Positions 1,400-61,014 are shown, counted from the stretch's first letter. The stretch is 64,000 nucleotides of DNA from Candidatus Woesearchaeota archaeon (GCA_014729145.1 WJKL01000016.1:225-64224), one strand, 5' to 3'. Notes: generated from the sequence alone by a model not told the origin. A program made the numbers and translations.

Positions 1400-1537
1400 A
1401 ATATTGTTAATTTTGTCATAGAATTTAAAGATTCTTATAAAATACTTATTAATATACTTATTTTTGTATTAATTTTAATACTTATTTTAAAGGTTTATTT
1501 CTTATGGAGCAATAGATTTATATATAAAGGGGAGCTA

Positions 1538-1558
1538 TTTCCATATGAAATGAAGGGG
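1538..1558 (+). promoter_or_regulatory. Isolated ORB-like (origin recognition box-like) element, TTTCCATATGAAATGAAGGGG, in the AT-rich spacer upstream of tbp
   Basis: Matches the consensus of the three ORB elements at 16.3-16.65 kb (TTCCA-N3-GAAATGAAGGrG), including the trailing G-run. Confidence 0.4.
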
Positions 1559-1665: not shown

Positions 1666-2241
1666 ATGGCTAAAAAGAAAAAATCTTCTAAAAAAGAAAT
1701 AAGGGTTGTAAATATTGTTGTAAGCACTTCTTTGGAGCATGATATTCCTTTAGAAAAGATGGCTGCAACCTTGAGCAATACTGAATATAATCCAGAGCAG
1801 TTTCCAGGATTGGTTATAAGAATCAAAGAACCAAAGACCAGCGCTTTGATCTTCAGCTCAGGAAAGGTAGTATGTACTGGAGCAAAGAGCATGGACAAGG
1901 TTGAAGAAAGCATCAAAAAGATAATCCAGAGCCTGAAAAAGATAGGGATTAAGATCACTATAAAACCTGAAATAAGCATACAGAATATTGTTGCGAGCGG
2001 AAAGGTTGGAATGGATCTTAACCTTAATACACTGGCGATGAAACTGCCTAATACTGAGTATGAACCAGAGCAGTTTCCTGGACTGGTGTATAAGTTAGAT
2101 GAAGCAAAAGCTACTTTTTTGCTTTTCAGCAATGGAAAGATAGTTTGTACAGGAACAAAAAGCGAGAAAGAAGTAAATGCTTCACTGGATATGTTGATTG
2201 AAAAACTGAAGAAAGTAGTTAAACCAAGCAGATATCAATAA
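1666..2241 (+). CDS. tbp: TATA-box binding protein (TBP)
   Basis: 191 aa with two internal direct repeats (EQFPGLV...FSSGKVVCTGAKS / EQFPGLVY...FSNGKIVCTGTKS), the typical TBP fold signature. Confidence 0.9.
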   Translation: MAKKKKSSKKEIRVVNIVVSTSLEHDIPLEKMAATLSNTEYNPEQFPGLVIRIKEPKTSALIFSSGKVVCTGAKSMDKVEESIKKIIQSLKKIGIKITIKPEISIQNIVASGKVGMDLNLNTLAMKLPNTEYEPEQFPGLVYKLDEAKATFLLFSNGKIVCTGTKSEKEVNASLDMLIEKLKKVVKPSRYQ

Positions 2242-2364: not shown

Positions 2365-5300
2365 ATGAATATGGAAGCAGCTGAAACTATAAATAAATTC
2401 AAAGAATTTTTTGAAAAAGAATATGAAGCTAAATTAAAAGATAGTGTTAGAAAAGGAAAACATTATCTTGTTATTGATTTTTCTGAACTTCTTAATTTTG
2501 ACCATGAGCTTTCTGATGGTCTTTTGGACAACCCAGAAGATTCTGTTGCTGCTGCTGAAGAGGCTGTAAAGGATTGTATTGATGGTAATATTAAAAAATT
2601 CAACATAAGATTCTTAAATCTTCCTGAAAACCAAAAGGTATTGGTAAGGAACATAAGAAGCAAACATATCGGAAGGCTTTTGGTGATGGATGGTGTGGTC
2701 AGGCAGAAAAGTGATGTAAGGCCGCAAGTAACTTCTGCAAAGTTTGAATGCCCTTCCTGCGGAAATATAATCAATGTTCTTCAGCTGGACAAAACATTCA
2801 AGGAACCAAATAAATGCGGGTGCGGAAGGAAAGGAAAATTTAGATTATTGAAGAAAGAACTGGTGGATGCTCAGGGGCTGGTTTTAGAAGAAGATCCTGA
2901 AAATCTTGAAGGAGGAGAGCAGCCAAAAAGGATGAATGTGCTGCTGCAGGACGATCTTGTAAGTCCTTTAAGCGAAAGGAAGACAAACCCTGGAAGCAAG
3001 ATAAAAATAATTGGAACAATAAAGGAAGTGCCAATATTTTCAAGAACTGGGAGCCAAACAACGAGATTTGACCTTCTTATAGAAGCAAATAATTTTGAAA
3101 CAATAGAGGAGAATTTCTATGAAGTTGAAATTACTAAAGAAGAGCATGAAGAGATCAAAAAGCTTTCAAAAGATCCTAAGATATACAAGAAACTTGTACA
3201 GTCAATAGCTCCATCTATATACGGCTATAAAAAAGTAAAAGAAGCATTGATACTGCAGCTTATGGGCGGGGTGCATAAGCAAAGACATGATGGGGTTGTA
3301 ACAAGAGGAGATATGCATATTCTTTTGATTGGGGATCCGGGAAGCGGAAAATCTCAGCTATTGAAAAGGGTAAATCTTATTGCGCCAAAAGGAAGATATG
3401 TATCTGGAAAGGGTGTTTCGGGTGCAGGACTTACTGCATCTGTTGTCAAGGATGAATTTTTAAAGGGATGGAGTTTAGAAGCAGGGGCTTTGGTATTGGC
3501 GAATAATGGAATGTGCTGTTTACATCCTGATACATCTATTGTCATTAATAATAAAATACAAAAAATATCAAAAATATTTGACTGCCATAAAAAAGAATTA
3601 GGAAAATGCAAAAATGAGATTGTTGAATTTAATGATATTGAAAAAGATGTAGTAAGTTTTGATATAAAAAGAATGGATTGTGAAAAACAAGTTTCGACAG
3701 TTATTAGGAGAAAGAAATTTGATGGCCATTTATTAAATGTCAAATTCAAATCAGGATTCTCTATAAAACTTACTCCTGACCACAAGATAATCGATGGAAA
3801 TCATTTAGGGTGGAAGGAAGCTCAAGAATTCAAAAAAGGGGAAAAAACATTGGCGCCCTTAAATTTGCCAAGCATTAAAGAAGATACTTTTATATTTGAC
3901 ATCTTACCTAAAAATTGGAAAGTTTTTTTGAACAAAAAAGAAAAAAACCAATTGAAGCAAAATATAAGAAGAAAATTTAAAACATTGAGCGCTTTCAATA
4001 AAAAATTTAACTTGGATAAGAATTTTCTTTCTGGAAGAAAACAAATAACTATTAAGAAATTTGAAAAAATCTTAGAATTTTTAGGAGAAAAAAATAAATG
4101 GAGAAAAATCCCTTTAAAATTTGGAAGGAATAAAAATGGAGAAAAATTGAAAATAGCCAAAATCACTCCAGAATTAGGCTATATATTAGGATTCATATTG
4201 GGAGATGGATATATAAATATGAATAAAAGAAGAACGACAATAAATATAACTCAATCTATCAAGAACAAGGAGAATATTAAAAGAATAAAAGAATATTGGA
4301 ATAAAATTTCATTGAAAAAATTAAAAGAAACTGAAGATAATAGAACCTCTAAGATTAGGGACCAAAAGGTAATATCAAAATGTAAAGTTCTTTATTCTGG
4401 GAGCAACCTTCTTGGTGGTTTATATAAACATTATACTTCGAATGCACTTGCCGAAATATTATCCCTGCCTGATGATGTGTTAAAAGGATTTATTGGTGGG
4501 ATTATGGATTCTGATGGCTGCATAAGTACAAGAAAGTACATAAAGAATGGAAATAAATATTTTACGCAGATTATTGAATTTTTATTTAGTAATGAAAGAA
4601 AAGAAAATCTTAATTTTATGCTTGCGCTTAGGAGATTTGATTGTTATGGTAAAATAAACGAGAGAGAAAATATAAAATCAGTCACAATTAGTAGTAGAAA
4701 AGATATATCTAATTTGATTAAAGAATTAGACTCTTTTTCTATTAAAATTAGTAAATCTAGATTATTAGTTAAGAATAAGCAAATTTCAGGAGACAGTGAT
4801 AAAATACCCTCCATCATTGGAAAAAAGATATGTGATAGGATAATAAAATTAAACAAATCCTTTTTGCTTAAGAAAGGTATATGGAGTACAGTTTATGGTT
4901 TTAAACATGGTGGAAGGGAACCTTCAAGAAATCAGATAATTAAAATCATCAATAAAACACAAGATATGATAAATGATAAAAAGTTTGTTGAGGGATCATT
5001 AGGATTGATAAAAAGAGACTATTTTCTAGATGAGATTGTTGATATAAAAAAAGAAAAATATTCAGGATATGTCTATGACTTATTTGTTCCGAAAAACCAT
5101 AACTTTCTTGCAGATGGAATAATTGTACATAATTGTATTGATGAGATGGACAAGATGAGCCAGGAAGACAGGAGTGCAATGCACGAGGCGCTTGAGCAGC
5201 AAAGCTTCCATTATGATACTTGGATTAGTTTAGCAGATGGTTCTGAAAAAAAGATTGGAAACTTCGTAGAAAAATTAATGAAAAAAAACCATAAAAAAAT

Positions 5301-7413
5301 TATAAAAGGAAAAGATTGTTATATACTTCCTACAGAAGACAAAGATGTAGAAATCTTCACTACTGATTGGAATAATATTTACAAAACAAAAATCAACAGA
5401 GTGAGCAAACACATTGCTCCAGATTATTTTATTAAAATAAAATTAAAAAATGGGAGAGAGATTACAGTAACTCCAGAACATCCTGTTTTCTATATAGATG
5501 AGTGTAAGATCAAAACCGTTGATGCTGAAAATGTAAAAGAAGATATGTGGATGCCTGTGCCTTTAGAAACAAATATAGAAGGAGAAAGTCAAAAATTTGA
5601 GATAACAAAAGAAGAATGCTACATAAATAGGGCTTCTCGACATATTGCTGTTCCGATGGAGAATGGAGAAAATTTCTTCAAGATTATAGGTTATATGCTA
5701 GCAGAAGGTTCTAAAGAACTTAATAGAGGAAAATTAATTGGTATTAATTTTACTAATAAAGATGAAAGATTATTAGAAGATTTTGAAAATTCCATGGAAG
5801 AATTATTTGGGCTTAGACCCTATAAACAACCCAGAATTGATGGTTATGATTTAAGATACATGTATAGGTATATTTCGAGAGAATTAAGTGTCTTTATTGA
5901 GAGAACATGTCCTGAGATATTAAATAAATCTAGTGAAAAAGAAATTCCTAAAATTTGTTTAAAAGGGAAAAAAGAAGATGTTGCTTTAATGCTTTCATGC
6001 ATGTTTGAAGGAGATGGTCATGTATCAAAAAAACTTAGAACTATTAGGGTAGGATTTGGATCTAATAGTAAGAAAATGTGCGAACAGGTTCAAGATTTGT
6101 TATTAAGATTTGGAATAAGAAGTAATTTGACTGAACACAAAAAAAGCTATAAAGTTTCGATTACTAGAAGAGAAAACTTGCTAAAATTTTATGAAAAAAT
6201 TGGATTTATTACTAAAGAAAAAAACAATATTATAAAAAAATATTTAGACAATGTAAAATTAAAAAGAAGTATCAAGAATAATATTCCTAATGTTTCTAAA
6301 AAAGTTATAAAATTGATGAAAAAATATGGTGTTAAATGTGTAGGAAATAATTGTTTGGCTACAATGAAATATGACTATCTTAAAAGAAGAAGAAATATAT
6401 CTAAACAAGCACTACAAGAGATTGTAAAAAAGATTTCTCCAAAACCTGAAGATAAGAAAGCCCATAATTTTCTTAAAAAAATGGCTTTTGGAAATATTGG
6501 ATTTGAAAAAATAAAATCTATTGAAAGAATAGAAAATAAGGATCAAAAATGGACTTATGATGTTACCATAGAGCCAACCCATAATTTTATTTCTCAAAAT
6601 ATGGTTTTACATAACACAATCAGCATAAGCAAGGCAAATATCCAGGCCACTCTTGTAGCTAGGACAACTGTGCTGGCTGCAGCAAACCCAAAGTTTGGAA
6701 GATTTGACCCTTATGATATCTTAGCGAAACAGATAGATCTTCCACCTGCGCTGATCAACAGGTTTGACCTTATATTTCCTATAAAAGATATGCCTGATAA
6801 AGAAAAAGACAAAAAAATGGCGCATCATATATTAGACCTTCATCAAAATCCTGATGTAGATGATCCTGAAATTGAAACAGAGCTTCTTAAGAAATATTTT
6901 GCCTATGCAAGACAGAATGTAAATCCAAAGCTTACCAGCGGTGCATTGGAGGAGATCAAAAATTATTATGTTGAGATGAGAAACAAAGAAGTGGGGGAAG
7001 AAGGCTCTGCAAGAGCAATACCAATATCACCAAGACAGCTTGAGGCTTTGATAAGATTGTCTGAGGCGTCTGCGAGGACAAGATTAAGCCCAAAAGTTAC
7101 AAAGAAAGACGCAAAAAAGGCAATAAGTCTGCTCCACCACTGCTTAAGTGAGATAGGTGTTGATCCAGAGACAGGAAAGATTGATATTGACAGAATTACT
7201 ACAGGTATAACAGCATCACAAAGAAACAAGATAGTGGTAATCAAGGAGATCATAAATGAGCTTGAGAATAAGATCGGAAAAACTATCCCTCTTGATGATC
7301 TGATAAAAGAGGCTGAAGACAAAGGAATAGAAGATATAGATGATGCTATTGAAAAGCTGAAAAGAAGCGGAGATATTTTTGAGCCCAAGAGAGGATTTAT
7401 ACAAAAGATCTAA
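2365..7413 (+). CDS. mcm: MCM replicative helicase interrupted by two inteins (1682 aa precursor; about 672 aa mature)
   Basis: N-terminal MCM domain with zinc finger (CPSCGN...CGCG), Walker A GDPGSGKSQ, Walker B CIDEMDKM split by insert 1, EQQ/TISISKA split by insert 2, arginine finger region LAAANP, C-terminal winged helix. Confidence 0.9.
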   Translation: MNMEAAETINKFKEFFEKEYEAKLKDSVRKGKHYLVIDFSELLNFDHELSDGLLDNPEDSVAAAEEAVKDCIDGNIKKFNIRFLNLPENQKVLVRNIRSKHIGRLLVMDGVVRQKSDVRPQVTSAKFECPSCGNIINVLQLDKTFKEPNKCGCGRKGKFRLLKKELVDAQGLVLEEDPENLEGGEQPKRMNVLLQDDLVSPLSERKTNPGSKIKIIGTIKEVPIFSRTGSQTTRFDLLIEANNFETIEENFYEVEITKEEHEEIKKLSKDPKIYKKLVQSIAPSIYGYKKVKEALILQLMGGVHKQRHDGVVTRGDMHILLIGDPGSGKSQLLKRVNLIAPKGRYVSGKGVSGAGLTASVVKDEFLKGWSLEAGALVLANNGMCCLHPDTSIVINNKIQKISKIFDCHKKELGKCKNEIVEFNDIEKDVVSFDIKRMDCEKQVSTVIRRKKFDGHLLNVKFKSGFSIKLTPDHKIIDGNHLGWKEAQEFKKGEKTLAPLNLPSIKEDTFIFDILPKNWKVFLNKKEKNQLKQNIRRKFKTLSAFNKKFNLDKNFLSGRKQITIKKFEKILEFLGEKNKWRKIPLKFGRNKNGEKLKIAKITPELGYILGFILGDGYINMNKRRTTINITQSIKNKENIKRIKEYWNKISLKKLKETEDNRTSKIRDQKVISKCKVLYSGSNLLGGLYKHYTSNALAEILSLPDDVLKGFIGGIMDSDGCISTRKYIKNGNKYFTQIIEFLFSNERKENLNFMLALRRFDCYGKINERENIKSVTISSRKDISNLIKELDSFSIKISKSRLLVKNKQISGDSDKIPSIIGKKICDRIIKLNKSFLLKKGIWSTVYGFKHGGREPSRNQIIKIINKTQDMINDKKFVEGSLGLIKRDYFLDEIVDIKKEKYSGYVYDLFVPKNHNFLADGIIVHNCIDEMDKMSQEDRSAMHEALEQQSFHYDTWISLADGSEKKIGNFVEKLMKKNHKKIIKGKDCYILPTEDKDVEIFTTDWNNIYKTKINRVSKHIAPDYFIKIKLKNGREITVTPEHPVFYIDECKIKTVDAENVKEDMWMPVPLETNIEGESQKFEITKEECYINRASRHIAVPMENGENFFKIIGYMLAEGSKELNRGKLIGINFTNKDERLLEDFENSMEELFGLRPYKQPRIDGYDLRYMYRYISRELSVFIERTCPEILNKSSEKEIPKICLKGKKEDVALMLSCMFEGDGHVSKKLRTIRVGFGSNSKKMCEQVQDLLLRFGIRSNLTEHKKSYKVSITRRENLLKFYEKIGFITKEKNNIIKKYLDNVKLKRSIKNNIPNVSKKVIKLMKKYGVKCVGNNCLATMKYDYLKRRRNISKQALQEIVKKISPKPEDKKAHNFLKKMAFGNIGFEKIKSIERIENKDQKWTYDVTIEPTHNFISQNMVLHNTISISKANIQATLVARTTVLAAANPKFGRFDPYDILAKQIDLPPALINRFDLIFPIKDMPDKEKDKKMAHHILDLHQNPDVDDPEIETELLKKYFAYARQNVNPKLTSGALEEIKNYYVEMRNKEVGEEGSARAIPISPRQLEALIRLSEASARTRLSPKVTKKDAKKAISLLHHCLSEIGVDPETGKIDIDRITTGITASQRNKIVVIKEIINELENKIGKTIPLDDLIKEAEDKGIEDIDDAIEKLKRSGDIFEPKRGFIQKI
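3517..5133 (+). mobile_element. Intein 1 in MCM (539 aa) with LAGLIDADG homing endonuclease domain. Inserted between NNGMC and CIDEMDKM (Walker B).
   Basis: Starts with Cys (CLHPDT), ends with His-Asn (IVHN), followed by a Cys +1 extein residue. LAGLIDADG-type motifs LGYILGFILGDGYI and KGFIGGIMDSDGCIS. The host motif is restored when the insert is removed. Confidence 0.75.
5203..6615 (+). mobile_element. Intein 2 in MCM (471 aa) with LAGLIDADG homing endonuclease domain. Inserted between EQQ and TISISKA.
   Basis: Starts with Ser (SFHYDT), ends with His-Asn (VLHN), followed by a Thr +1 residue. LAGLIDADG-type blocks IIGYMLAEGS and LSCMFEGDGHVS. Removal restores the canonical MCM motif EQQTISI. 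Confidence 0.7.
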
Positions 7414-9971: not shown

Positions 9972-12900
9972 CTAACCAAACCACTTTCCAAGACCTTCCT
10001 GCCTTTCTTTTTCTTTTCCAAAAACACTTTCAATCCTTCTTTGGAGTATTGTAAGTGTCTGCTTCAGATAATCAGGGATATTATATTTGTTTGCAAGAGA
10101 TATGCTTGGCTGGAGGTATTTTACTACAGAGCCTTCTGAGATGGTGAAGATTATCCTGCCTCCGCATTCAGTGCATTTTCCTATCAAAGGGGGCCGCCTG
10201 TATTTTGTATTGCATTTTACACAACGAAACTGCTGCATTGAAAATTTCCTGAGATTTCCTTTGATGTCTCTTAGGAAATGTTTTTCTATGACCAATCTTG
10301 CGACATCAGAGGTATCTACAGCTCTTAGTTTTTCTGCTATGTTCATCTGCCCCTTTAACTTATCCTCCATAGAAGGCAAAGTCTTGTATGCAGAACATCT
10401 TACCCCTTTATTTATGTTTGAGGTGTCATGTGTAAAACCAAGACCTTCATATTGCTTTGGTGTGTTAAGGTGGTCTCCAAGTTTTGATATTTCAATGTCC
10501 CATGGATCCTTATATGCAATGCATGCATTATAGAACTCAAGAGTGTATCTCCAGGCGATATCCATGTCAAATATCATATCATCTATTTCAGAAGGGATGA
10601 GTCTTGAGGTCATTACAAGGGGTGCGTCTTGGGTTGCTCCTCTGTGTGCAGGAAGGTACTGCCTGGAAAAATTGATTACTGCATCCATCAGAAGGTTTAC
10701 TGATGCTTCATCTCCGTCGCAGTCTCTTCTTGTAGCAGCATGGAGCATGGGATGAGCAAAAAAACCTTGGGTATTTGAAAAACCGATGATTCTCCCCACT
10801 ATTGCTGCAGAAGTGTGTGGCGCTAAAGCAAGAACAAGATGGCCGATAAGGTCTTGTTCAGATTTTAAATTATAGTAAGCTGGTAAGCTGTAAAGATTTT
10901 TAAGAAGGTCATCGCAGAATTTTGAAACCCTGAACAATACTTCATCTGCTCCCTGATCTGGAGATTCCTGACATGCAGGAAGAACTATGTCCTGTGGCTT
11001 TAATTCTAGAATCTGGTCTTTTTCCCTAAGGGGTTTTCCATGAATGTCTTTTATATATCCAAGCTCGTTAAGCTTTTCTACAGAAGTTCCTATCTCTTTT
11101 GGCTTGAAATGGGTCAGAGGAAGCTGAGTCATATCATACCTTGTTGTTCCGTCTTTGTTTACGTGTATATCATTTTTTGCCCTTAATATCCCTTTTATCA
11201 GGTGTTCAGGCACATGGTCTTTGTTTGATGTCCCTCTTACTCCTTTGATCAAATCAGGGTATGCTTTAATCTTTAATTTTTTAAGCATCTGCTTGAAATA
11301 ATACTTTATGTCAATATCCTGCAGCCTGTGATGTGGTATTTCTCCATGTTTTTTGCATTTCTCTTTTTCTTTTGATCCACAGATCTTGCAGAAATATCTT
11401 TTTTCTGTTCTTTTACCACAGGTTTCGCATACACTAAAGATGGTTTCTTTACTGCATCTTTTGCAGAAGAATAGGGGGAAATTGGACCTTATCTTTCCCT
11501 CTTCAAGTGCAGCCTGGAAAGAACGCAGTCTTCCCCCTTCATTTCCAACAGGGAACAGAACATGAGGTGATCCGGTAAGTTTTCTCATCTTGGCCTTTTC
11601 AGGACGCCCCATCCTTGCGCCTATGAATACTCCTGACTTGTCCCTAATCTTAACTGAGGATATATCTTTGATAATATCTAGGGGGTTCTTGTCTATTGAA
11701 GTAATATTAGAAATATTTAACTGGGCGATAAAAGCCGGGGCGTGATCTTTTTTGATTACTATAAACTCTTTATTGACAACAATATGGGGCAGACCTATCA
11801 GTTCCAATGCCCTTTTAGTATGCTCTTCTATCGGGATTATTATTTTCTTGGTGGTATTATTTTCTTTTTTTATCTCTGATTTTTTAATTGATCTTACAAG
11901 TTCAGAAAACTGCTCCTTGTTTATAAGCTTCCAGTGGTATGTATATCTTGGATGAAGAGGGATGTTCAACTTTAGAGAAAGTTTAAGGGCGTGCTGTGGA
12001 GAAATTATGGTATTTAGTGGGTTCTTAGTCAGCTTATTGAGTATATCTTCAGGTATTTCAGTAAACTCTGAAAGCTTGTAGGTGTCAAGATTTCCAAAAT
12101 TATCAACCGTGGCTTTTTCCAGCTCCTGTATCCACCATTCCTCACAATAACCAGGAGGTATCAAAGAATGAGCACGATTGAGGAAATCCCCATAGTTTAT
12201 GAGCATATCTCCCATGAAAAGGATCTCTTCAATATTATCTGAATATTCTTTTAGTTCTGATTCATTCTCTATCTTCACAACTGAACCGTCTTTGAGTTTT
12301 ATTATAGGACCTTCAAGCGTGTCGCAGACTGTGACGGTACAGCCTTTTCCAGGCCTCTCTATCTTCAGCTGGGTTCCAGTGCCAATATAATCATTTAAGG
12401 CTGCCATGGTAGCTGGGTGGATAGATGTAGCAGAATACCCTGATGTCCTTGACCTTCCAAATCTTAACCTAAATCCGCCAGGAGCAAGCGGGTGCGTCAA
12501 AACAGGCCTTCCTGCAACAAGGTCTTTTATGAATGTATGGTCCGGCTTTACTTCATTGGTTTCTTTTTCCTCTTTTTTATCTGGTGTCTGTTTTGATTTT
12601 ATCTTTTTTTGTAGTCTTACGAATTCTTCAAGAAAATCCCACTGCTCCATACTGAATTCGTGACCCCATTTTGAAAGCTGTTTCCATAATTTAGGGGCTT
12701 TTTGGGCAATTCCCTCTCCCATAGTAAGGCAGACCCCATTTCTGATCCTGTTTGTCTCTACTCTTTCAAGGTCCTTATAATTGGAAACCTCTATCTTTTC
12801 GGAAGGGTCTCCAGCTATCTGAACAGGTATGTGTTTAGCTAAAAATTCTATCTCTTCTGGAGAGGGAAGATATTGAAGATTGGTAATCTTTTCATGATAA

Positions 12901-13496
12901 TCATAAAGTTCAGTGACATACCTTTTAGTCTCCTTTTCGTTTGGATCATAAGGGTGATATCCCATCTTTTTTCTTACATAATCTGCAATCAAAACAGAAA
13001 CTGAAGCTCCGGTGCCCCCTGCACTCCTGATTGGTCCAGAAAAATATAGTTTAAAGTATTCTTTTCCTTCTTTTGTCTTTTCTATAGATAACTTGCTGAA
13101 ACCTTCAAGAGGGGATGCGACCGAACCTAAAGTATGGTATGCGAATCCTACCCTTATTCCCACCTCCATTGCTTCTTTTTTGTCTTCGAACTTGCAGAAT
13201 TTCTGATTTGCGATCTCTTCAGCGATTATGAGTGATATTCTCCAGTCCAGAACACTGTATTTTTTTTCGAGGTCCTGTATCCTTTTTGATACTCCTGAAT
13301 CTATAATCTGAGGTGCAACTGCAGAGATAAGCCCGGTTACACGCTCAGCCATATTCCTGGCAACAGGTATATCTATCTTTTCTTCTGGATCATATCCCTT
13401 CTTTCTTGCTTTGGAAGCCAGAGAAAGCCCTTTTTTCAGTTTTTCATCTATCTTTTTGAAGTAATCTTCCATCTCTTTTGAAGTTTGTGGGCTCAT
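9972..13496 (-). CDS. dp2: DNA polymerase II (PolD) large subunit DP2
   Basis: 1174 aa. Conserved DP2 blocks including Cys clusters (CKRCSKETIFSVCETCGKRTE...CKICG) and C-terminal zinc finger (CVKCNTKYRRPPLIGKCTECGG). Start overlaps the DP1 stop (ATGA). No intein. Confidence 0.9.
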   Translation of the reverse strand: MSPQTSKEMEDYFKKIDEKLKKGLSLASKARKKGYDPEEKIDIPVARNMAERVTGLISAVAPQIIDSGVSKRIQDLEKKYSVLDWRISLIIAEEIANQKFCKFEDKKEAMEVGIRVGFAYHTLGSVASPLEGFSKLSIEKTKEGKEYFKLYFSGPIRSAGGTGASVSVLIADYVRKKMGYHPYDPNEKETKRYVTELYDYHEKITNLQYLPSPEEIEFLAKHIPVQIAGDPSEKIEVSNYKDLERVETNRIRNGVCLTMGEGIAQKAPKLWKQLSKWGHEFSMEQWDFLEEFVRLQKKIKSKQTPDKKEEKETNEVKPDHTFIKDLVAGRPVLTHPLAPGGFRLRFGRSRTSGYSATSIHPATMAALNDYIGTGTQLKIERPGKGCTVTVCDTLEGPIIKLKDGSVVKIENESELKEYSDNIEEILFMGDMLINYGDFLNRAHSLIPPGYCEEWWIQELEKATVDNFGNLDTYKLSEFTEIPEDILNKLTKNPLNTIISPQHALKLSLKLNIPLHPRYTYHWKLINKEQFSELVRSIKKSEIKKENNTTKKIIIPIEEHTKRALELIGLPHIVVNKEFIVIKKDHAPAFIAQLNISNITSIDKNPLDIIKDISSVKIRDKSGVFIGARMGRPEKAKMRKLTGSPHVLFPVGNEGGRLRSFQAALEEGKIRSNFPLFFCKRCSKETIFSVCETCGKRTEKRYFCKICGSKEKEKCKKHGEIPHHRLQDIDIKYYFKQMLKKLKIKAYPDLIKGVRGTSNKDHVPEHLIKGILRAKNDIHVNKDGTTRYDMTQLPLTHFKPKEIGTSVEKLNELGYIKDIHGKPLREKDQILELKPQDIVLPACQESPDQGADEVLFRVSKFCDDLLKNLYSLPAYYNLKSEQDLIGHLVLALAPHTSAAIVGRIIGFSNTQGFFAHPMLHAATRRDCDGDEASVNLLMDAVINFSRQYLPAHRGATQDAPLVMTSRLIPSEIDDMIFDMDIAWRYTLEFYNACIAYKDPWDIEISKLGDHLNTPKQYEGLGFTHDTSNINKGVRCSAYKTLPSMEDKLKGQMNIAEKLRAVDTSDVARLVIEKHFLRDIKGNLRKFSMQQFRCVKCNTKYRRPPLIGKCTECGGRIIFTISEGSVVKYLQPSISLANKYNIPDYLKQTLTILQRRIESVFGKEKERQEGLGKWFG

Positions 13497-15076
13497 TTTC
13501 CGAATTTAAGTAGTTTAAATTTTCTTGTCTGAAGATTTAATATTGGAACACGTGCGGGCTCAGGATTATGGCCAACTTTTTCCTGGAAAGGTGTCTTGGA
13601 CTGCCAGCATGAACCGCAGACAAGAGTTATATTTCTGTAATTTTTTATCGTAGATTTATGAATATGGCCTGTAATAAATATATCAGGAAGGGTTTCAATT
13701 ACCAAGGGGTCTTTTGATGTGTTTGGGATATAAAGGGTGGATGTATGGCTTGGAGCAAGGTGTCTTTTTTGGAGTAAAAACTGCATGATAAGGTCAGCAC
13801 GATTGTATCCTCCTTTGTTCCTGATTGAATCGATATTGGCTACAAAATAATCAAAGGAATATCCATGATATAACAATACATCAAAACCAGGAAAATCCCC
13901 TGAAGAGTGAATATTGACTGTTGATGGATTGCTGACCATAGTGACGTTAGGAAGCTCCCAGATTGAGCCTGCAAAATCTTTGTAAAGTGTGGGCTGAGGC
14001 TCTGCAATGCGCATAGCATCGTGATTTCCAGGAGATATTATTAGATTTATATGCTGAGGGATTTTTTTCAGAAGACTGGCACATTCTTCATATTGTTTTT
14101 TTATGTCTTTGATGACAAGTTCATCTTCCTGTCCAGGGTATATTCCATGGCCATCCACTAGATCTCCCACAATAAATACATATTTTGTCTTTTCCGCAAT
14201 ATTTTTCTGCTCTTGATTTCCAGTATTGCCATTGATCCAGTCTAAAAACTGGTTGAATTCCTTGCCTAAAAAATGGTCTGAACCTACATGGACGTCTGAC
14301 AAAAATACAGCATAGGCTTCTTCTGGTGCTTTTCTCAGCTCCTTGCTTAAAGGGACTTCCGGCCAGATGATATTGTTGGCAAAAACAATATTATCCCCAT
14401 TTACACCTACAACCCCAATGACCTCATCAAGAACGATGTCCTGTGCTGGATTAAAAAGCTCTGGCTTGTTGTTGTTTACATATACCTTGATGCATCCAGT
14501 AGGGTCCTCTAAAGTAAGCATAAGCCCTCCTTTGGATGTAGTTTTTTTGTCTTTCACTATCCCTATTATCGACACATTGTCTTTGTCTTGTTTGCTATTG
14601 AGTCTTGTTATTGAGGTTAAATTCCTTAAATCAGGCCTGCTTCTTAGTATTTTTTCAAGCGCCTTGTACCTCACATTAAAATAAGAAACAAAGTCCTGGA
14701 TGTCTCTTTTCTTGCTTTCTTCCTCATATGAATTTATTATCTTTATATTTTGGGACTCGGGTTTGTTATCTACATCTTCAGAGTGCAGAAAATCTACAAA
14801 CTTAAAATAAACCTCTTTATTTTTTCCTTTTTCAAAGGACACCCTTGCATTATCAAAATCAACCCAATTCATGTCAAGAGGTGCATCCTGGTCCACCATC
14901 TTTTTTACATCAGAAGTTAACATAAGAAAGTTTCTTGATTTGAGTTTCTTGAAAAGTAAAGAATAAAAATCTGAAGGCTCAAAATCATCTGTAAGCGAAT
15001 CTAGAAATCCCTGTGATAGGAATATTTCTTTCTTTAAAAAATAATTTACAATCTTCTTTTGTTTTTCAATTTCCAT
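13493..15076 (-). CDS. dp1: DNA polymerase II (PolD) small subunit DP1 (calcineurin-like phosphoesterase, 3'-5' exonuclease)
   Basis: 527 aa. Metallophosphoesterase motifs (VFLSDVHVGS, GDLVDG, GNHD, GHIH). N-terminal OB region. Confidence 0.85.
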   Translation of the reverse strand: MEIEKQKKIVNYFLKKEIFLSQGFLDSLTDDFEPSDFYSLLFKKLKSRNFLMLTSDVKKMVDQDAPLDMNWVDFDNARVSFEKGKNKEVYFKFVDFLHSEDVDNKPESQNIKIINSYEEESKKRDIQDFVSYFNVRYKALEKILRSRPDLRNLTSITRLNSKQDKDNVSIIGIVKDKKTTSKGGLMLTLEDPTGCIKVYVNNNKPELFNPAQDIVLDEVIGVVGVNGDNIVFANNIIWPEVPLSKELRKAPEEAYAVFLSDVHVGSDHFLGKEFNQFLDWINGNTGNQEQKNIAEKTKYVFIVGDLVDGHGIYPGQEDELVIKDIKKQYEECASLLKKIPQHINLIISPGNHDAMRIAEPQPTLYKDFAGSIWELPNVTMVSNPSTVNIHSSGDFPGFDVLLYHGYSFDYFVANIDSIRNKGGYNRADLIMQFLLQKRHLAPSHTSTLYIPNTSKDPLVIETLPDIFITGHIHKSTIKNYRNITLVCGSCWQSKTPFQEKVGHNPEPARVPILNLQTRKFKLLKFGK

Positions 15077-15109: not shown

Positions 15110-16321
15110 TTAAGATATATCTAATCCTTCCTCTAAAATATTTTTTATGGTCTGTTCGGATGACTCTGATATAGATAAAGTTATATCTCTTGTTCTTCCA
15201 TATCTTCCCTTTGATATTACCTTTGCATTTATTATCCCTAACATATCCAACTCTGCGATAACATCTGAGACCCTTCTTTGGGTTAGGGGCCTTATGTTAG
15301 TTTTGGAGCATATCTTTTTGTAAACTTCATATACCTCTCCTGTGAATATCTGTTTTTCTTTTTTAGAGCAAATAGAAAGGATAGAGTAAAGGATAGCCTG
15401 GTGTTGTTTTGGTTGGGTTCTTATTATATCTAAAATTCTGTCTTTTTCTATCTTTTCTTCTGCAAAATCAATATCATCTAATTCTATCTTTTCTTTGTTT
15501 TTTCTTTCTGCCAGTTCGCCTGCGACCCGCAAGAGCTCCAGGGCCCTTCTTGCATCCCCATGTTCTCTGGCTGCATAAGCGGCACATTTTTCTATCACTC
15601 CTGATTTCATTGATTTTTTTTGGAATGCTTTTTTTGCCCTCTGTCTTAAGATATCCTGTATCTGGATTGCATTATATGGGGGGAAGATTATCTCTTCTTC
15701 TGATAATGAAGATTTTACCCTTGGATCTAAATTATCTCTGAACATTAGGTCATTGGATACCCCAATTATTGATATTTGAGATTTTTGAAGCTCTGAATTT
15801 ATTCTTGTTAGGTTATATAATACTTCATCCCCTGTTTTACTTACAAGCTGGTCGATCTCATCCAAAATCAATAAAATCAAAGAATTTTCTTTTTCTATCA
15901 AATTGAATACTATCTTATATACTTCTTCTGTTGGTAGGCCTGTTGATGGGATCTCCTGTCCAAGTTCTCTAGAAATCTGAGCAACTAATCTATATTCAGT
16001 GTCTGCGATTTTTTTTAACTTACAGTTTAGATATATTGTTTTGAGAGGTATTTTTCTTTTGGTTGCTACATTTATCAGTTTGTTGGATGTAAATTTTATC
16101 GAAAGGGTCTTTCCTGTTCCTGTTTTTCCATAAATGAAAAGATTAGAAGGTTTGTCTAACTTTAAGGCTGGTGCTAAGATATCTGCTATTTCTTGTATCT
16201 GCTTATCTCTATGGGGTGTTGTTTCTGGTGTAAAGTTTGATTGAAGTGCTTTTTTGTTTGTGAATATTGATTTTTTATCTAAGAATTCTTCGAAAAATAC
16301 ATCTATATTTTTTTGATCCAT
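15110..16321 (-). CDS. orc1: Orc1/Cdc6 replication initiator
   Basis: 403 aa AAA+ protein with Walker A GKTGTGKT and Walker B LILDEID. C-terminal winged-helix domain. Starts 15 bp from ORB1. Confidence 0.9.
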   Translation of the reverse strand: MDQKNIDVFFEEFLDKKSIFTNKKALQSNFTPETTPHRDKQIQEIADILAPALKLDKPSNLFIYGKTGTGKTLSIKFTSNKLINVATKRKIPLKTIYLNCKLKKIADTEYRLVAQISRELGQEIPSTGLPTEEVYKIVFNLIEKENSLILLILDEIDQLVSKTGDEVLYNLTRINSELQKSQISIIGVSNDLMFRDNLDPRVKSSLSEEEIIFPPYNAIQIQDILRQRAKKAFQKKSMKSGVIEKCAAYAAREHGDARRALELLRVAGELAERKNKEKIELDDIDFAEEKIEKDRILDIIRTQPKQHQAILYSILSICSKKEKQIFTGEVYEVYKKICSKTNIRPLTQRRVSDVIAELDMLGIINAKVISKGRYGRTRDITLSISESSEQTIKNILEEGLDIS

Positions 16322-16335
16322 CTAAACACCCTCTA

Positions 16336-16354
16336 TTTCCAAATGAAATGGAAG
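16336..16354 (+). promoter_or_regulatory. ORB1: TTTCCAAATGAAATGGAAG (dyad TTCCA...TGGAA)
   Basis: Matches the archaeal ORB/mini-ORB core. 15 bp upstream of the orc1 start codon. Confidence 0.5.
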
Positions 16355-16375
16355 TATAAATAATTTTTTGTTTGT

Positions 16376-16403
16376 GCCCCTGACTCCTTCATTTCATTTG
16401 GAG
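16376..16403 (-). promoter_or_regulatory. ORB2 (read on minus strand): CTCCAAATGAAATGAAGGAGTCAGGGGC with downstream G-string
   Basis: Full-length ORB architecture (dyad core plus GAAATGAAGG plus GGGG). Confidence 0.55.
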
Positions 16404-16626
16404 TTTTATATTGTTGTTTTGGATGGTTTAAATTTATTTCAGTAGTTTAATATATATAATATAATAATTATTTTTTAATTTATATTTTTTATTATAATAT
16501 TTAGAGGCTTTCTTTTTATTTTTTTCTATATTGAAAATAAATATAATATAATAAATAATAATATAATAATAAAAATAATAAATAAAAAATAAAAAAGAAA
16601 ACAACAAACAAAACAAAAAAACGACA

Positions 16627-16653
16627 TTTCCACACGAAATGAAGGAGTAGGAG
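16627..16653 (+). promoter_or_regulatory. ORB3: TTTCCACACGAAATGAAGGAGTAGGAG. Inverted relative to ORB2 across the AT-rich stretch.
   Basis: Same consensus. A degenerate fourth copy (CATTTCATTT core) lies at about 16672-16693. Confidence 0.55.
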
Positions 16654-16834
16654 AATGAAAAAATCAAGAGATTGGAATACATTTCATTTAAAGTTATCAC
16701 TATATAATAATAAAAACCATTACCTTTATAAACAATATTCTCTTAATTATCCATATATCCAAAAAGAAATTGATAGGTATAAGTATATTATAATATAAAA
16801 TTAACATTAAAATAAGGATAGTGAGGGAAAAACA

Positions 16835-17653
16835 ATGATAGTTAAGAAAGATTTTTTAAACAAACTAAAAGATTTCGGATTAAATACATACGAAAGCAAA
16901 TTATGGACTGCTTTGTTGTCAAGAGGTGTTTCAACTGCAGGTGAATTAAGTGATATTGCAGGAGTTCCAAGAAGCAGAAGTTATGATGTTCTCGAAAGTC
17001 TTGAGAAAAAAGGCTTTATTATTATGAAGGTAGGAAAACCAATAAAATATGTGGCTGTTCCTCCGACTGATGTTTTAGAAAGAGTAAAAAAACAGATAGA
17101 AAATGAAGCAAACAAACAGATAGGCGTTATCGATTCTATTGAAGAAAGTGACGTATTAAATAAGCTTCAGTCCTTACACCAAGAAGGCGTTGATATGATA
17201 GACCCTACTGATTTAAGTGGGTGTGTAAAAGGGAGGAATAACCTTTACAATCATCTTGGATCAATGATTAATGACGCAAAAGAATCTGTTTCTATAATGA
17301 CTACAATGGATGGCCTCAAAAGAAAATTAGATAATCTAAAAAACGTTCTTGAGAAAGCAAAGAAAAAAGGTGTTAATGTAAGGATCGCTGCCCCTTTGAA
17401 AAAAGCAGATAAAAAAATAATAGATGAACTATCTAAATATGCAGAAATAAAACACAGTGATGTCAATTCAAGATTTTGTGTTATAGATGGAAAACAAGTG
17501 GCATTTATGTTATTAGATGACAAAGACGTACACCCAACTTATGATGCAGCCATCTGGGCAAATACGAAGTTGTTTGCTTCAACCCTTGAAAATTTCTTTA
17601 ACCAATGCTGGGGCAATATGAAACCAGCTGACAAGTTTGTAAAGGCATCTTAA
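16835..17653 (+). CDS. TrmB-family transcriptional regulator (paralog 1)
   Basis: N-terminal wHTH (LWTALLSRGVSTAGELSDIAGVPRSRSYDVLESLEKKGF) plus C-terminal TrmB effector-type domain. More than 60% identical to the ORF at 45256 over the N-terminal 90 aa. Confidence 0.8.
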   Translation: MIVKKDFLNKLKDFGLNTYESKLWTALLSRGVSTAGELSDIAGVPRSRSYDVLESLEKKGFIIMKVGKPIKYVAVPPTDVLERVKKQIENEANKQIGVIDSIEESDVLNKLQSLHQEGVDMIDPTDLSGCVKGRNNLYNHLGSMINDAKESVSIMTTMDGLKRKLDNLKNVLEKAKKKGVNVRIAAPLKKADKKIIDELSKYAEIKHSDVNSRFCVIDGKQVAFMLLDDKDVHPTYDAAIWANTKLFASTLENFFNQCWGNMKPADKFVKAS

Positions 17654-60126: not shown

Positions 60127-60145
60127 GTTTGTTCTTCCTCTTTAC

Positions 60146-60412
60146 CTAATTTTTTATCCTGTTTTTTGATTTTCCAAACAGCAGTTTTCCTTTTACGACT
60201 GCAGCCTGTTTTTTTGTCTTGATCTTTATGGTTATGTTATTTTTTAACAGTATTTTTCCTGAACCTTTTTTGTCTTGGATAACGATTGTATTTTTTGTAT
60301 CATCGATGATCTTTCCTTTGATGCCTATGTTATCCTTATTTTTCGAGTCTATTACTTCAACTTCTAGACCTATGATCTCAGACTTAATGAGATCCTTTAA
60401 ATCTGATTTCAT
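60146..60412 (-). CDS. RNase P protein component 1 (Rpp29, Sm-like)
   Basis: 88 aa. Position between SUI1/L29 and S17 is conserved in archaea. Sm-like pattern LIGLEVEVIDS...GIKGKIIDDTKNTIVI. Confidence 0.6.
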   Translation of the reverse strand: MKSDLKDLIKSEIIGLEVEVIDSKNKDNIGIKGKIIDDTKNTIVIQDKKGSGKILLKNNITIKIKTKKQAAVVKGKLLFGKSKNRIKN

Positions 60413-60438
60413 CCTGTTCTTTTTTGTTTTATCAAAGT

Positions 60439-60747
60439 TTATTTAACTTCAATTGCCTCTGGAGCAAAGCCGTATTGAACCAATCTTTCCTTTATATCTT
60501 TTCTGTGATCACCCTGGAGCTCAATCTTGCCGTCTTTTGCGGTTCCTCCGCAGGCAAACTTGGTCTTGAGGGTCTTTGCGAGATCTTTAAGGTCGATCTC
60601 TTTTTCGTCTATACCTCTAATCACTGTATTTATCTTGCCAAACGCTTTTTTAACCGTTTTCACAGTTATCTTTTGGCTCTCTTTTGCGATTGATTCACAA
60701 ACACATAGTTCTTTTGGCAGCCCACAGTCTGGACAAACTTCAGCCAT
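60439..60747 (-). CDS. Translation initiation factor SUI1 (aIF1)
   Basis: 102 aa. N-terminal Cys cluster (CPDCGLPKELCVC) plus SUI1 core (ITVKTVKKAFGKINTVIRGI...FACGGT). Confidence 0.75.
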   Translation of the reverse strand: MAEVCPDCGLPKELCVCESIAKESQKITVKTVKKAFGKINTVIRGIDEKEIDLKDLAKTLKTKFACGGTAKDGKIELQGDHRKDIKERLVQYGFAPEAIEVK

Positions 60748-61012
60748 TTATCTTTTCCTCTGTTTGTTTTTTTGTCTTTTTCATAGACTTTTTTGGTGTA
60801 TGCACAGAAGCCTCTTTTTTCTTAGCTTCTGTATTCACTATTGTTAAAATTCTAGCAATAGTTTTTTTTATTTCTCTGATTTGCCCTGGATTTTTTGGTG
60901 TAGTTCCAGTAGCAATTTGAGCATTATTTTTTATCATTTCTTTTCTGAGTTCATCTAGCTTTGAATTAAGTTCTTCCCTTCCCATTGAACGCAGATCTTT
61001 TATCTTAGTCAT
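60740..61012 (-). CDS. rpl29: Ribosomal protein uL29
   Basis: Helical uL29 core (LRSMGREELNSKLDELRKEM) with a C-terminal basic tail. Confidence 0.7.
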   Translation of the reverse strand: MTKIKDLRSMGREELNSKLDELRKEMIKNNAQIATGTTPKNPGQIREIKKTIARILTIVNTEAKKKEASVHTPKKSMKKTKKQTEEKING

Positions 61013-61014
61013 TT

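Follow-up and report, generated by a model that had tools for sequence, protein, structure and literature searches.

A putative oriC1-type replication origin upstream of orc1 in a Candidatus Woesearchaeota archaeon

Background

In Sulfolobus (Saccharolobus), the replication origin oriC1 lies beside the initiator gene orc1-1 and contains three origin recognition boxes (ORBs), two of which, ORB2 and ORB3, flank an AT-rich duplex unwinding element (DUE) in inverted orientation (PMC12141716). Each flanking ORB binds one Orc1-1 monomer with a defined polarity, firing is abolished if either flanking ORB is lost, and once bound, the initiators guide MCM to the spacer between the boxes (PMC12141716). 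The gene order in Pyrococcus and the Thermococcales is oriC-cdc6/orc1-dp1-dp2 (PMC1904270), and oriC1 of Haloferax volcanii, as a haloarchaeal example, is intergenic between divergent genes, one of which is orc1, with DP1 nearby and with ORBs (a mini-ORB core plus a G-string) around an AT-rich DUE (PMC1868953). Here we compare with these systems a 513-bp non-coding gap in a 64,000-nucleotide stretch of DNA (the window, its positions counted from its first letter) that makes up nearly all of a 64.6-kb contig of a Candidatus Woesearchaeota (DPANN) archaeon (GCA_014729145.1, WJKL01000016.1:225-64224). The segment 16336-16653 of this window is very probably an Orc1-dependent chromosomal replication origin of the oriC1 type, and we describe it as the putative origin of this Candidatus Woesearchaeota.

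DPANN archaea are uncultivated, and to our knowledge no experiment has addressed how their replication is initiated. No account of ORBs in Woesearchaeota or DPANN turned up in a literature search, and complete Nanobdellota genomes are rotated to ORC1 by convention in a text that contains neither 'ORB' nor 'skew' (10.64898/2026.05.13.725050). An earlier interpretation of the window made without database searches (the sequence-only reading) had placed a probable origin here, a proposal now supported by the class of the initiator (Orc1-1), by inverted ORBs with an AT-rich spacer, by conservation and by gene order.

Origin recognition boxes and the AT-rich spacer

The gap lies between orc1, which is on the minus strand and starts at 16321, and a divergent gene of the TrmB family. 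It contains the following elements, scored where a score is given with a position weight matrix (PWM):

16336-16354, plus strand: ORB1, a mini-ORB, TTTCCAAATGAAATGGAAG; TTCCA-N3-GAAATG core without the G-string; PWM 16.1
16355-16362, minus strand: probable TATA box of orc1-DP1-DP2, TATTTATA on the orc1 strand after an A-run (TATAAATA as the window reads)
16376-16403, minus strand: ORB2, a full ORB with G-string, CTCCAAATGAAATGAAGGAGTCAGGGGC; exact match to the 19-nt pattern; PWM 24.7-26.7
16404-16626, no strand: AT-rich spacer, the presumed DUE and MCM loading zone; 223 nt, 89.2% A+T
16522-16537, no strand: central dyad, TTTTCTATATTGAAAA; 16 bp, in the family form TTTTC-WATATW-GAAAA
16627-16653, plus strand: ORB3, a full ORB, TTTCCACACGAAATGAAGGAGTAGGAG; exact match to the 19-nt pattern; PWM 28.9-29.4, the top score in the window
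16672-16695, minus strand: possible degenerate mini-ORB, TTTAAATGAAATG; weak evidence

ORB2 and ORB3 are mutually inverted, with their TCCA ends toward the AT-rich spacer and their G-rich ends outward, and both fit the published ORB consensus as well as the actual ORBs of S. islandicus and P. furiosus. The 19-nt pattern TCCANNNGAAATGAAGGAG, allowing at most one mismatch, occurs three times in the window where 0.01 occurrences are expected, and none of 100 shuffled sequences reached three. The spacer between the two boxes is the most AT-rich 223-nt stretch of the window (which is 66% A+T overall, with a runner-up at 83.4%), and is T-rich in its left half and A-rich in its right half.

ORB1 forms a perfect 13-nt inverted repeat with ORB2 and is situated between the TATA box of orc1 and its start codon, 15 nt from the latter. 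It is conserved in a four-sequence alignment (A2), in which the block AAAAA-TATTTATA is invariant; this block, whose TATA-like part is centred about 37 nt from the ATG at 16321, also fits the consensus of the proximal class of ORBs described below, and the whole conserved arrangement reads AAAAA-TATTTATA-ORB1-GGGTG-ATG. From this geometry, a molecule of Orc1 on ORB1 would be expected to repress the operon that encodes it.

Direct reading of the sequence agrees with the coordinates and strands that the sequence-only reading had given for ORB1 to ORB3, and these also bear out its claim that ORB2 and ORB3 are inverted around an A/T stretch. Its extreme A/T element proves to be the window's maximum, at a size of 223 nt rather than about 210. 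The degenerate fourth copy that it had suggested is a mixed case: the element at 16672-16695 scores below 12 with the PWM in the window, yet it matches ORB2 at 14 of 16 positions over CATTTCATTTGGAGTT, and a degenerate ORB-like sequence, TTCATAAGAAAT, stands at the aligned position in a related locus (L083). That reading had also named the possibility of a repeat dispersed over many unrelated loci; the window's 64 kb hold only one further strong copy, at a position conserved upstream of the genes for TBP and MCM, and the motif is therefore no dispersed repeat.

Other readings of the gap found no support. An open reading frame (ORF) called at 16434-16700 on the minus strand, which had been taken as an artefact of the AT run, indeed has a low-complexity translation rich in F, I, Y and L and no Pfam match, and a protein-coding role was rejected. 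A non-coding RNA was likewise rejected, since no Rfam family reaches its gathering threshold anywhere in the 64 kb (which also contain no tRNA gene) and only a sub-threshold Y_RNA match lies near the locus (21.3 versus 38 bits), a match that we attribute to the inverted repeat of ORB1 and ORB2. For a hairpin or cruciform in the spacer, the single-stranded fold gave z = -0.30, no support for selection on pairing; and a scan for promoters and terminators of bacterial type, not relevant to an archaeon, returned fewer matches than shuffled sequence.

An initiator of the Orc1-1 class

The gene beside the boxes, the only orc1 in the 64-kb window, is

15110-16321, minus strand: orc1/cdc6, 403 aa; Pfam Cdc6_C 1.5e-30, Cdc6_lid 1.6e-23

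Its product matches Sulfolobus Orc1-1 (2qby_A) with an E-value of 6.9e-109 and Aeropyrum ORC1 (2v1u_A) with 1.3e-95, both of them initiators whose structures were solved on origin DNA. The score for Orc1-1 is 367.6 bits, compared with 148.5 for Orc1-3 (2qby_B) and with 80.5 and 73 for 1fnn and 1w5s, solved structures of more remote archaeal paralogues, and by sequence similarity the initiator of the window is of the Orc1-1 class. Residues R349 and R373 align with R341 and R365 in the winged-helix domain (WHD) of the Sulfolobus solfataricus (Sso) protein, and G128-L129 with G120-L121 of its initiator-specific motif (ISM); all four are invariant in 24 homologues (alignment A1). Origin binding is weaker when Sso R341/R365 or the ISM residues G120-L121 are mutated (PMC3089459), and ORC1 is among the single-copy core orthogroups of Nanobdellota (10.64898/2026.05.13.725050).

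Comparison with described archaeal origins

The likeness to Sulfolobus oriC1 extends from the position beside orc1-1 and the number of ORBs to their polarity, which is equal in S. islandicus (ORB2-DUE-ORB3, TCCA inward and G-strings outward), and to the initiator, which is orthologous and conserves the WHD and ISM contact residues (2QBY, 2V1U). The S. islandicus oriC1 ORB TCTCCAAATGAAATACTGGGGTAGG (PMC12141716, supplement) shares with ORB2 of the window 13 consecutive identical bases, CTCCAAATGAAAT, and the G-rich part begins at the same offset (+16) in both. The two origins differ in the spacer, which is about 223-226 bp long and 89% A+T here but 96 bp and 77% A+T in S. islandicus; in its middle, which here holds a 16-bp dyad and in Sulfolobus the 11-bp ucm, with no UBP-like factor identified here; and in that Sulfolobus has two further origins with other initiators. 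Like ucm, the dyad is a short conserved motif about midway between inverted ORBs, inside an otherwise mutation-tolerant AT-rich spacer (PMC12141716). This is an analogy of position only, for the dyad is symmetric, 16 bp long and confined to origins, whereas ucm, at 11 bp, belongs to a set of more than 300 UBP sites in the genome.

With the Thermococcales the locus shares its gene order, in which orc1 is followed by the two subunits of the DNA polymerase PolD:

13493-15076, minus strand: PolD small subunit DP1 (Pfam), co-directional with orc1
9972-13496, minus strand: PolD large subunit DP2 (Pfam), co-directional with orc1

The DP1 stop and the DP2 start share 4 nt. These coordinates confirm the earlier statement that the locus is directly 5' of orc1, followed co-directionally by DP1 and DP2 with overlapping stop and start, and the Pyrococcus-like order oriC-cdc6-dp1 that had been recognized fits the published one (PMC1904270) and the linkage of orc1 to DP1 in 79 of 80 related loci. 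As in Pyrococcus, the ORB core TTCCA...GAAATGAA is followed by a G-string and two long ORBs form an inverted repeat; GGGG starts at +23 in ORB2 of the window and at +21 in ORB1 of P. furiosus, TTCCAGTGGAAATGAAACTCTGGGGGG (PMC1904270). Unlike the Thermococcales, the window lacks an array of many 13-bp mini-ORBs, and its additional ORB is 15 kb off, upstream of TBP-MCM, rather than in dp1: a second ORB cluster of the Thermococcales type was not found in dp1 (no PWM match of at least 12 in 13493-15076), the sole PWM match in the polD genes being a weak one in DP2 at 10421 (12.5). The consensus of the boxes in relatives, given in the next section, fits the euryarchaeal ORB consensus of Norais et al., GTTCCAGTGGAAAC-AAA----GGGGG (PMC1868953). 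The likeness to Haloferax volcanii and other haloarchaea lies in the position between divergent genes, with DP1 close by, and in ORBs around an AT-rich DUE; the differences are that the halophile-specific extended G-string is absent here, that there is one DUE and not two, and that the base composition is far more extreme.

Conservation in related genomes

The comparison covered 80 orc1 loci, drawn from species-representative genomes. Almost all of them carry the label Woesearchaeota or Nanoarchaeota, and their Orc1 proteins are 57-82% identical to that of the window. In these relatives the density of the core TCCA-N3-GAAA is 2.70 per kb within 900 nt upstream of orc1 and 0.11 per kb elsewhere, and the ORB sites upstream of orc1 fall into three positional classes that reproduce the layout of the window. 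The first is a proximal mini-ORB followed by TATAAAT, less than 60 nt and mostly about 16-30 nt from the orc1 start (28 sites); the second is a full ORB that reads toward orc1, typically at about -70 to -150; and the third, usually between about -300 and -500, is a full ORB in inverted orientation. From 132 full sites we derived the consensus TTCCAtAgGAAAtaAAGGgGT. An inverted pair around an AT-rich spacer was detected, under a strict core criterion, in 34 of 62 loci, with a median spacer of 260 nt that is 82% A+T, compared with 65% for the locus. The non-coding gap upstream of orc1 is long in the relatives (median about 428 nt), and of the coding bases found within 3 kb upstream of orc1, 68% are on the divergent strand.

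One relative, 78% identical, is represented by independent JGI and ENA assemblies (L083 and L084), both of which have the order TrmB-gap-orc1-DP1-DP2 with an alignable gap, so that the join across the AT stretch in the window is not an assembly artefact. Assembled contigs stop 89-395 nt upstream of orc1 in 17 of the 80 species-representative genomes (2.15 expected, P about 2e-10), and several (L031, L036, L081, L082 and L001) begin at the central dyad or within about 35 nt of it. The AT-rich, near-palindromic origin spacer is a hotspot of assembly breakpoints.

The central dyad

The dyad in the middle of the spacer is 100% conserved in the closest relatives, and the form TTTTC-WATATW-GAAAA is present upstream of orc1 in 28 of 62 loci. 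The 59.9 kb upstream of orc1 contain 29 strong copies, the other 446.9 kb of the same loci contain none, and 326 kb of unrelated loci contain a single one; among AT-matched segments the density is 1.02 per kb upstream of orc1 and 0.02 per kb otherwise. Wherever both ORBs were detected, the strong copies, as read from their positions, all lie between the inverted boxes. The dyad is an origin-specific element.

A hairpin is not supported as the basis of its symmetry: across 34 aligned dyads the arms pair at 65.8% of positions (64.9% after shuffling), and the score for covariation between the arms was reached by 41 of 500 shuffles, so the symmetry is one of consensus and not of covariation. With no detectable selection on arm pairing, a symmetric protein site is likelier than a hairpin, and candidate binders may be the neighbouring TrmB-family protein or TBP on the TATATA core. 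Of 62 relatives, 22 have a TrmB-family gene as divergent neighbour, as do L083 and L084, and by hand count the dyad is present in 18 of the 22 loci with this neighbour and in 17 of the 40 without it, a comparison confounded by relatedness. TrmB as the binder is no more than an idea, and the dyad clearly occurs without that neighbour.

An origin recognition box upstream of TBP and MCM

The further strong copy lies near the left end of the window, 15 kb from the origin, and has as its neighbours:

1496-1508, minus strand: weak inverted ORB partner; PWM 14.0; 31 nt from the ORB at 1540
1540-1558, plus strand: extra-origin full ORB, TCCATATGAAATGAAGGGG then TTATATTT; one mismatch to the 19-nt pattern; PWM 27.3
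1666-2241, plus strand: TBP; Pfam TBP 6e-63
2365-7413, plus strand: MCM helicase with two inteins, 1682 aa; Pfam MCM domains, Intein_splicing (2 stretches) and LAGLIDADG

The full ORB is 108 nt upstream of TBP. For comparison we collected 80 TBP loci from metagenomes (TBP 73-89% identical), 71 of which have enough upstream sequence, and in 46 of these 71 the 600 nt before TBP include a strong ORB. The density of strong ORBs is 1.45 per kb upstream of TBP and 0.028 per kb elsewhere; their orientation is nearly always that of TBP, a TATA-like sequence often follows, and at least 10 loci have a tandem pair 83-85 nt apart. TBP is linked to MCM in 71 of the 80 loci, with a variable upstream neighbour and no orc1 within 2.5 kb.

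A second origin at about 1.5 kb, in the second most AT-rich segment of the window (83.4% A+T), was rejected: the ORB partners there are only 31 nt apart, and in the relatives the ORBs are single or in same-orientation tandem and do not form an inverted pair flanking a long AT spacer. Because that architecture is absent, we read the box at 1540 as a non-origin Orc1 site, regulatory or architectural. Non-origin Orc1 sites, detected by chromatin immunoprecipitation sequencing (ChIP-seq) and with effects on transcription, have been reported for Sulfolobus (PMC3607249).

Beside the box, a perfect 10-nt direct repeat, AATACTTATT, is found at 1441-1450 and 1477-1486, with a third near-copy at about 1456, in a gap that is 83% A+T. 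The order of TBP followed by MCM is the same in two of the related loci, L081 and L083, whose called MCM genes encode 668-670 aa, compared with 1682 aa in the window, where the P-loop domain of MCM is interrupted by two intein splicing regions and a LAGLIDADG endonuclease domain (Pfam).

Mechanism and rival explanations

The case for an origin at 16336-16653 is built here on the locus's anatomy and statistical significance, on its conservation in relatives and on the conserved contact residues of Orc1; by homology to Sulfolobus, Aeropyrum and Pyrococcus we infer the binding of Orc1, the loading of MCM, unwinding and autorepression. In the mechanism that we propose, ATP-bound Orc1 from the adjacent gene would occupy ORB2 and ORB3 with one monomer each, its winged-helix domain on the TTCCA-N3-GAAA core and its AAA+ initiator-specific motif on the G-rich part. 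As the two boxes are inverted with their TCCA ends inward, the bound molecules would be mirror images flanking the 223-bp, 89% A+T spacer. Each would recruit an MCM hexamer to the spacer, where the duplex would open and bidirectional replication would start, while Orc1 on ORB1 would shut off the orc1-DP1-DP2 unit and so regulate its own supply.

Several points weigh against an active origin at this position. A full ORB stands at the non-origin position 1540, and therefore ORBs alone are no proof of an origin in this lineage. Some archaea, Thermococcus kodakarensis and Haloferax volcanii among them, are able to replicate without using their origins. Nucleotide skew, in which a polarity switch would support an origin but does not define one, is at most mildly adverse: raw GC and AT skew in the window track the coding strand, and when GC skew at third codon positions (GC3 skew) was regressed on gene strand and side of the locus, the strand-corrected values showed no sign switch at 16.5 kb, in a 64-kb window of low power with only 9 genes left of the locus. 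To the left and to the right of the locus alike, GC3 skew has a positive value (intercept +0.125 +/- 0.019, side term -0.048 +/- 0.019, again with those 9 genes on the left).

The elements could instead form only a divergent promoter and operator region, in which the ORBs are Orc1 operators for orc1-polD and perhaps trmB and replication starts elsewhere. ORB1 does overlap the inferred core promoter of orc1, the full ORB before TBP-MCM indicates that Orc1 sites in this lineage also front genes at a non-origin position, and the transcriptional effects at such sites in Sulfolobus (PMC3607249) point the same way. A promoter, however, needs neither a pair of inverted full ORBs, about 226 bp apart, that frame the contig's most AT-rich segment nor an origin-specific central dyad conserved across the order, and the TBP site, with its single or same-orientation tandem ORBs, lacks the architecture of an origin. 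Regulation and origin function are compatible; a purely regulatory role we regard as improbable.

It is also rather unlikely that the origin is intact but dormant, or one of several, with replication starting mostly from elsewhere or depending on recombination. Archaea with several origins, and with dormant ones, have been described (PMC5333045), and the missing skew switch would agree with such a situation; yet ORC1/Cdc6 belongs to the single-copy core in Nanobdellota, one orc1 is present in the window, and ORBs, spacer and dyad show strong purifying conservation, which speaks for their use. Archaeal mobile elements can encode an Orc1, and origin capture is also known among archaea; on that ground the locus might be an origin brought in, together with its Orc1, by an integrated plasmid or virus, and not the chromosomal one. 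We consider this most improbable, given that the initiator is of the core Orc1-1 type, that a conserved housekeeping block (TBP, MCM, eIF-2 beta, PolD and an IF-2B-family gene) has the same order in independent assemblies, and that neither an integrase nor a tRNA gene is nearby.

The putative chromosomal origin is as a specialist would expect, and the dyad and the ORB before TBP-MCM are the parts worth following. Together with its 80 relatives, the locus provides a concrete origin model of ORBs, polarity, spacer and central dyad, and it indicates a recognition code of Orc1-1 and ORB common to this lineage and Sulfolobus oriC1, down to 13 consecutive bases of one box. With the ORB and dyad motifs it may be possible to find origins, to orient and close genomes and to anchor peak-to-trough estimates of growth rate in metagenomes, and the conserved ORB before TBP-MCM is a lead on gene expression controlled by the initiator. 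More tentatively, Orc1 of the Woesearchaeales might be more than an origin selector, acting through the TBP-mcm ORB as a transcription factor or as the origin's architectural partner over a long range, with a dyad-binding factor in a role like that of UBP at ucm; if so, Orc1 would couple the occupancy of the origin to the supply of the replicative helicase and of a general transcription factor.

Neighbouring genes and base composition

The gene on the far side of the origin is

16835-17653, plus strand: TrmB-family regulator, divergent from orc1; Pfam TrmB 2e-21

Segment 1666-16321 of the window belongs to an island of replication and information-processing genes that is common to the window, L081 and L083, in the order TBP, MCM, OB-fold protein, SpoIIM-like protein, eIF-2 beta, DUF424, DP2, DP1, Orc1, origin, TrmB-like protein and IF-2B-family gene. 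Strand-corrected GC3 skew of the plus strand is positive across the window and falls from left to right, a trend that could reflect the codon usage of gene classes or a replication-linked bias without a switch at 16.5 kb. When ORFs of 120 aa or more are considered, the widest interval without one spans 60127-61014 (888 nt), within a series of short genes on the minus strand.

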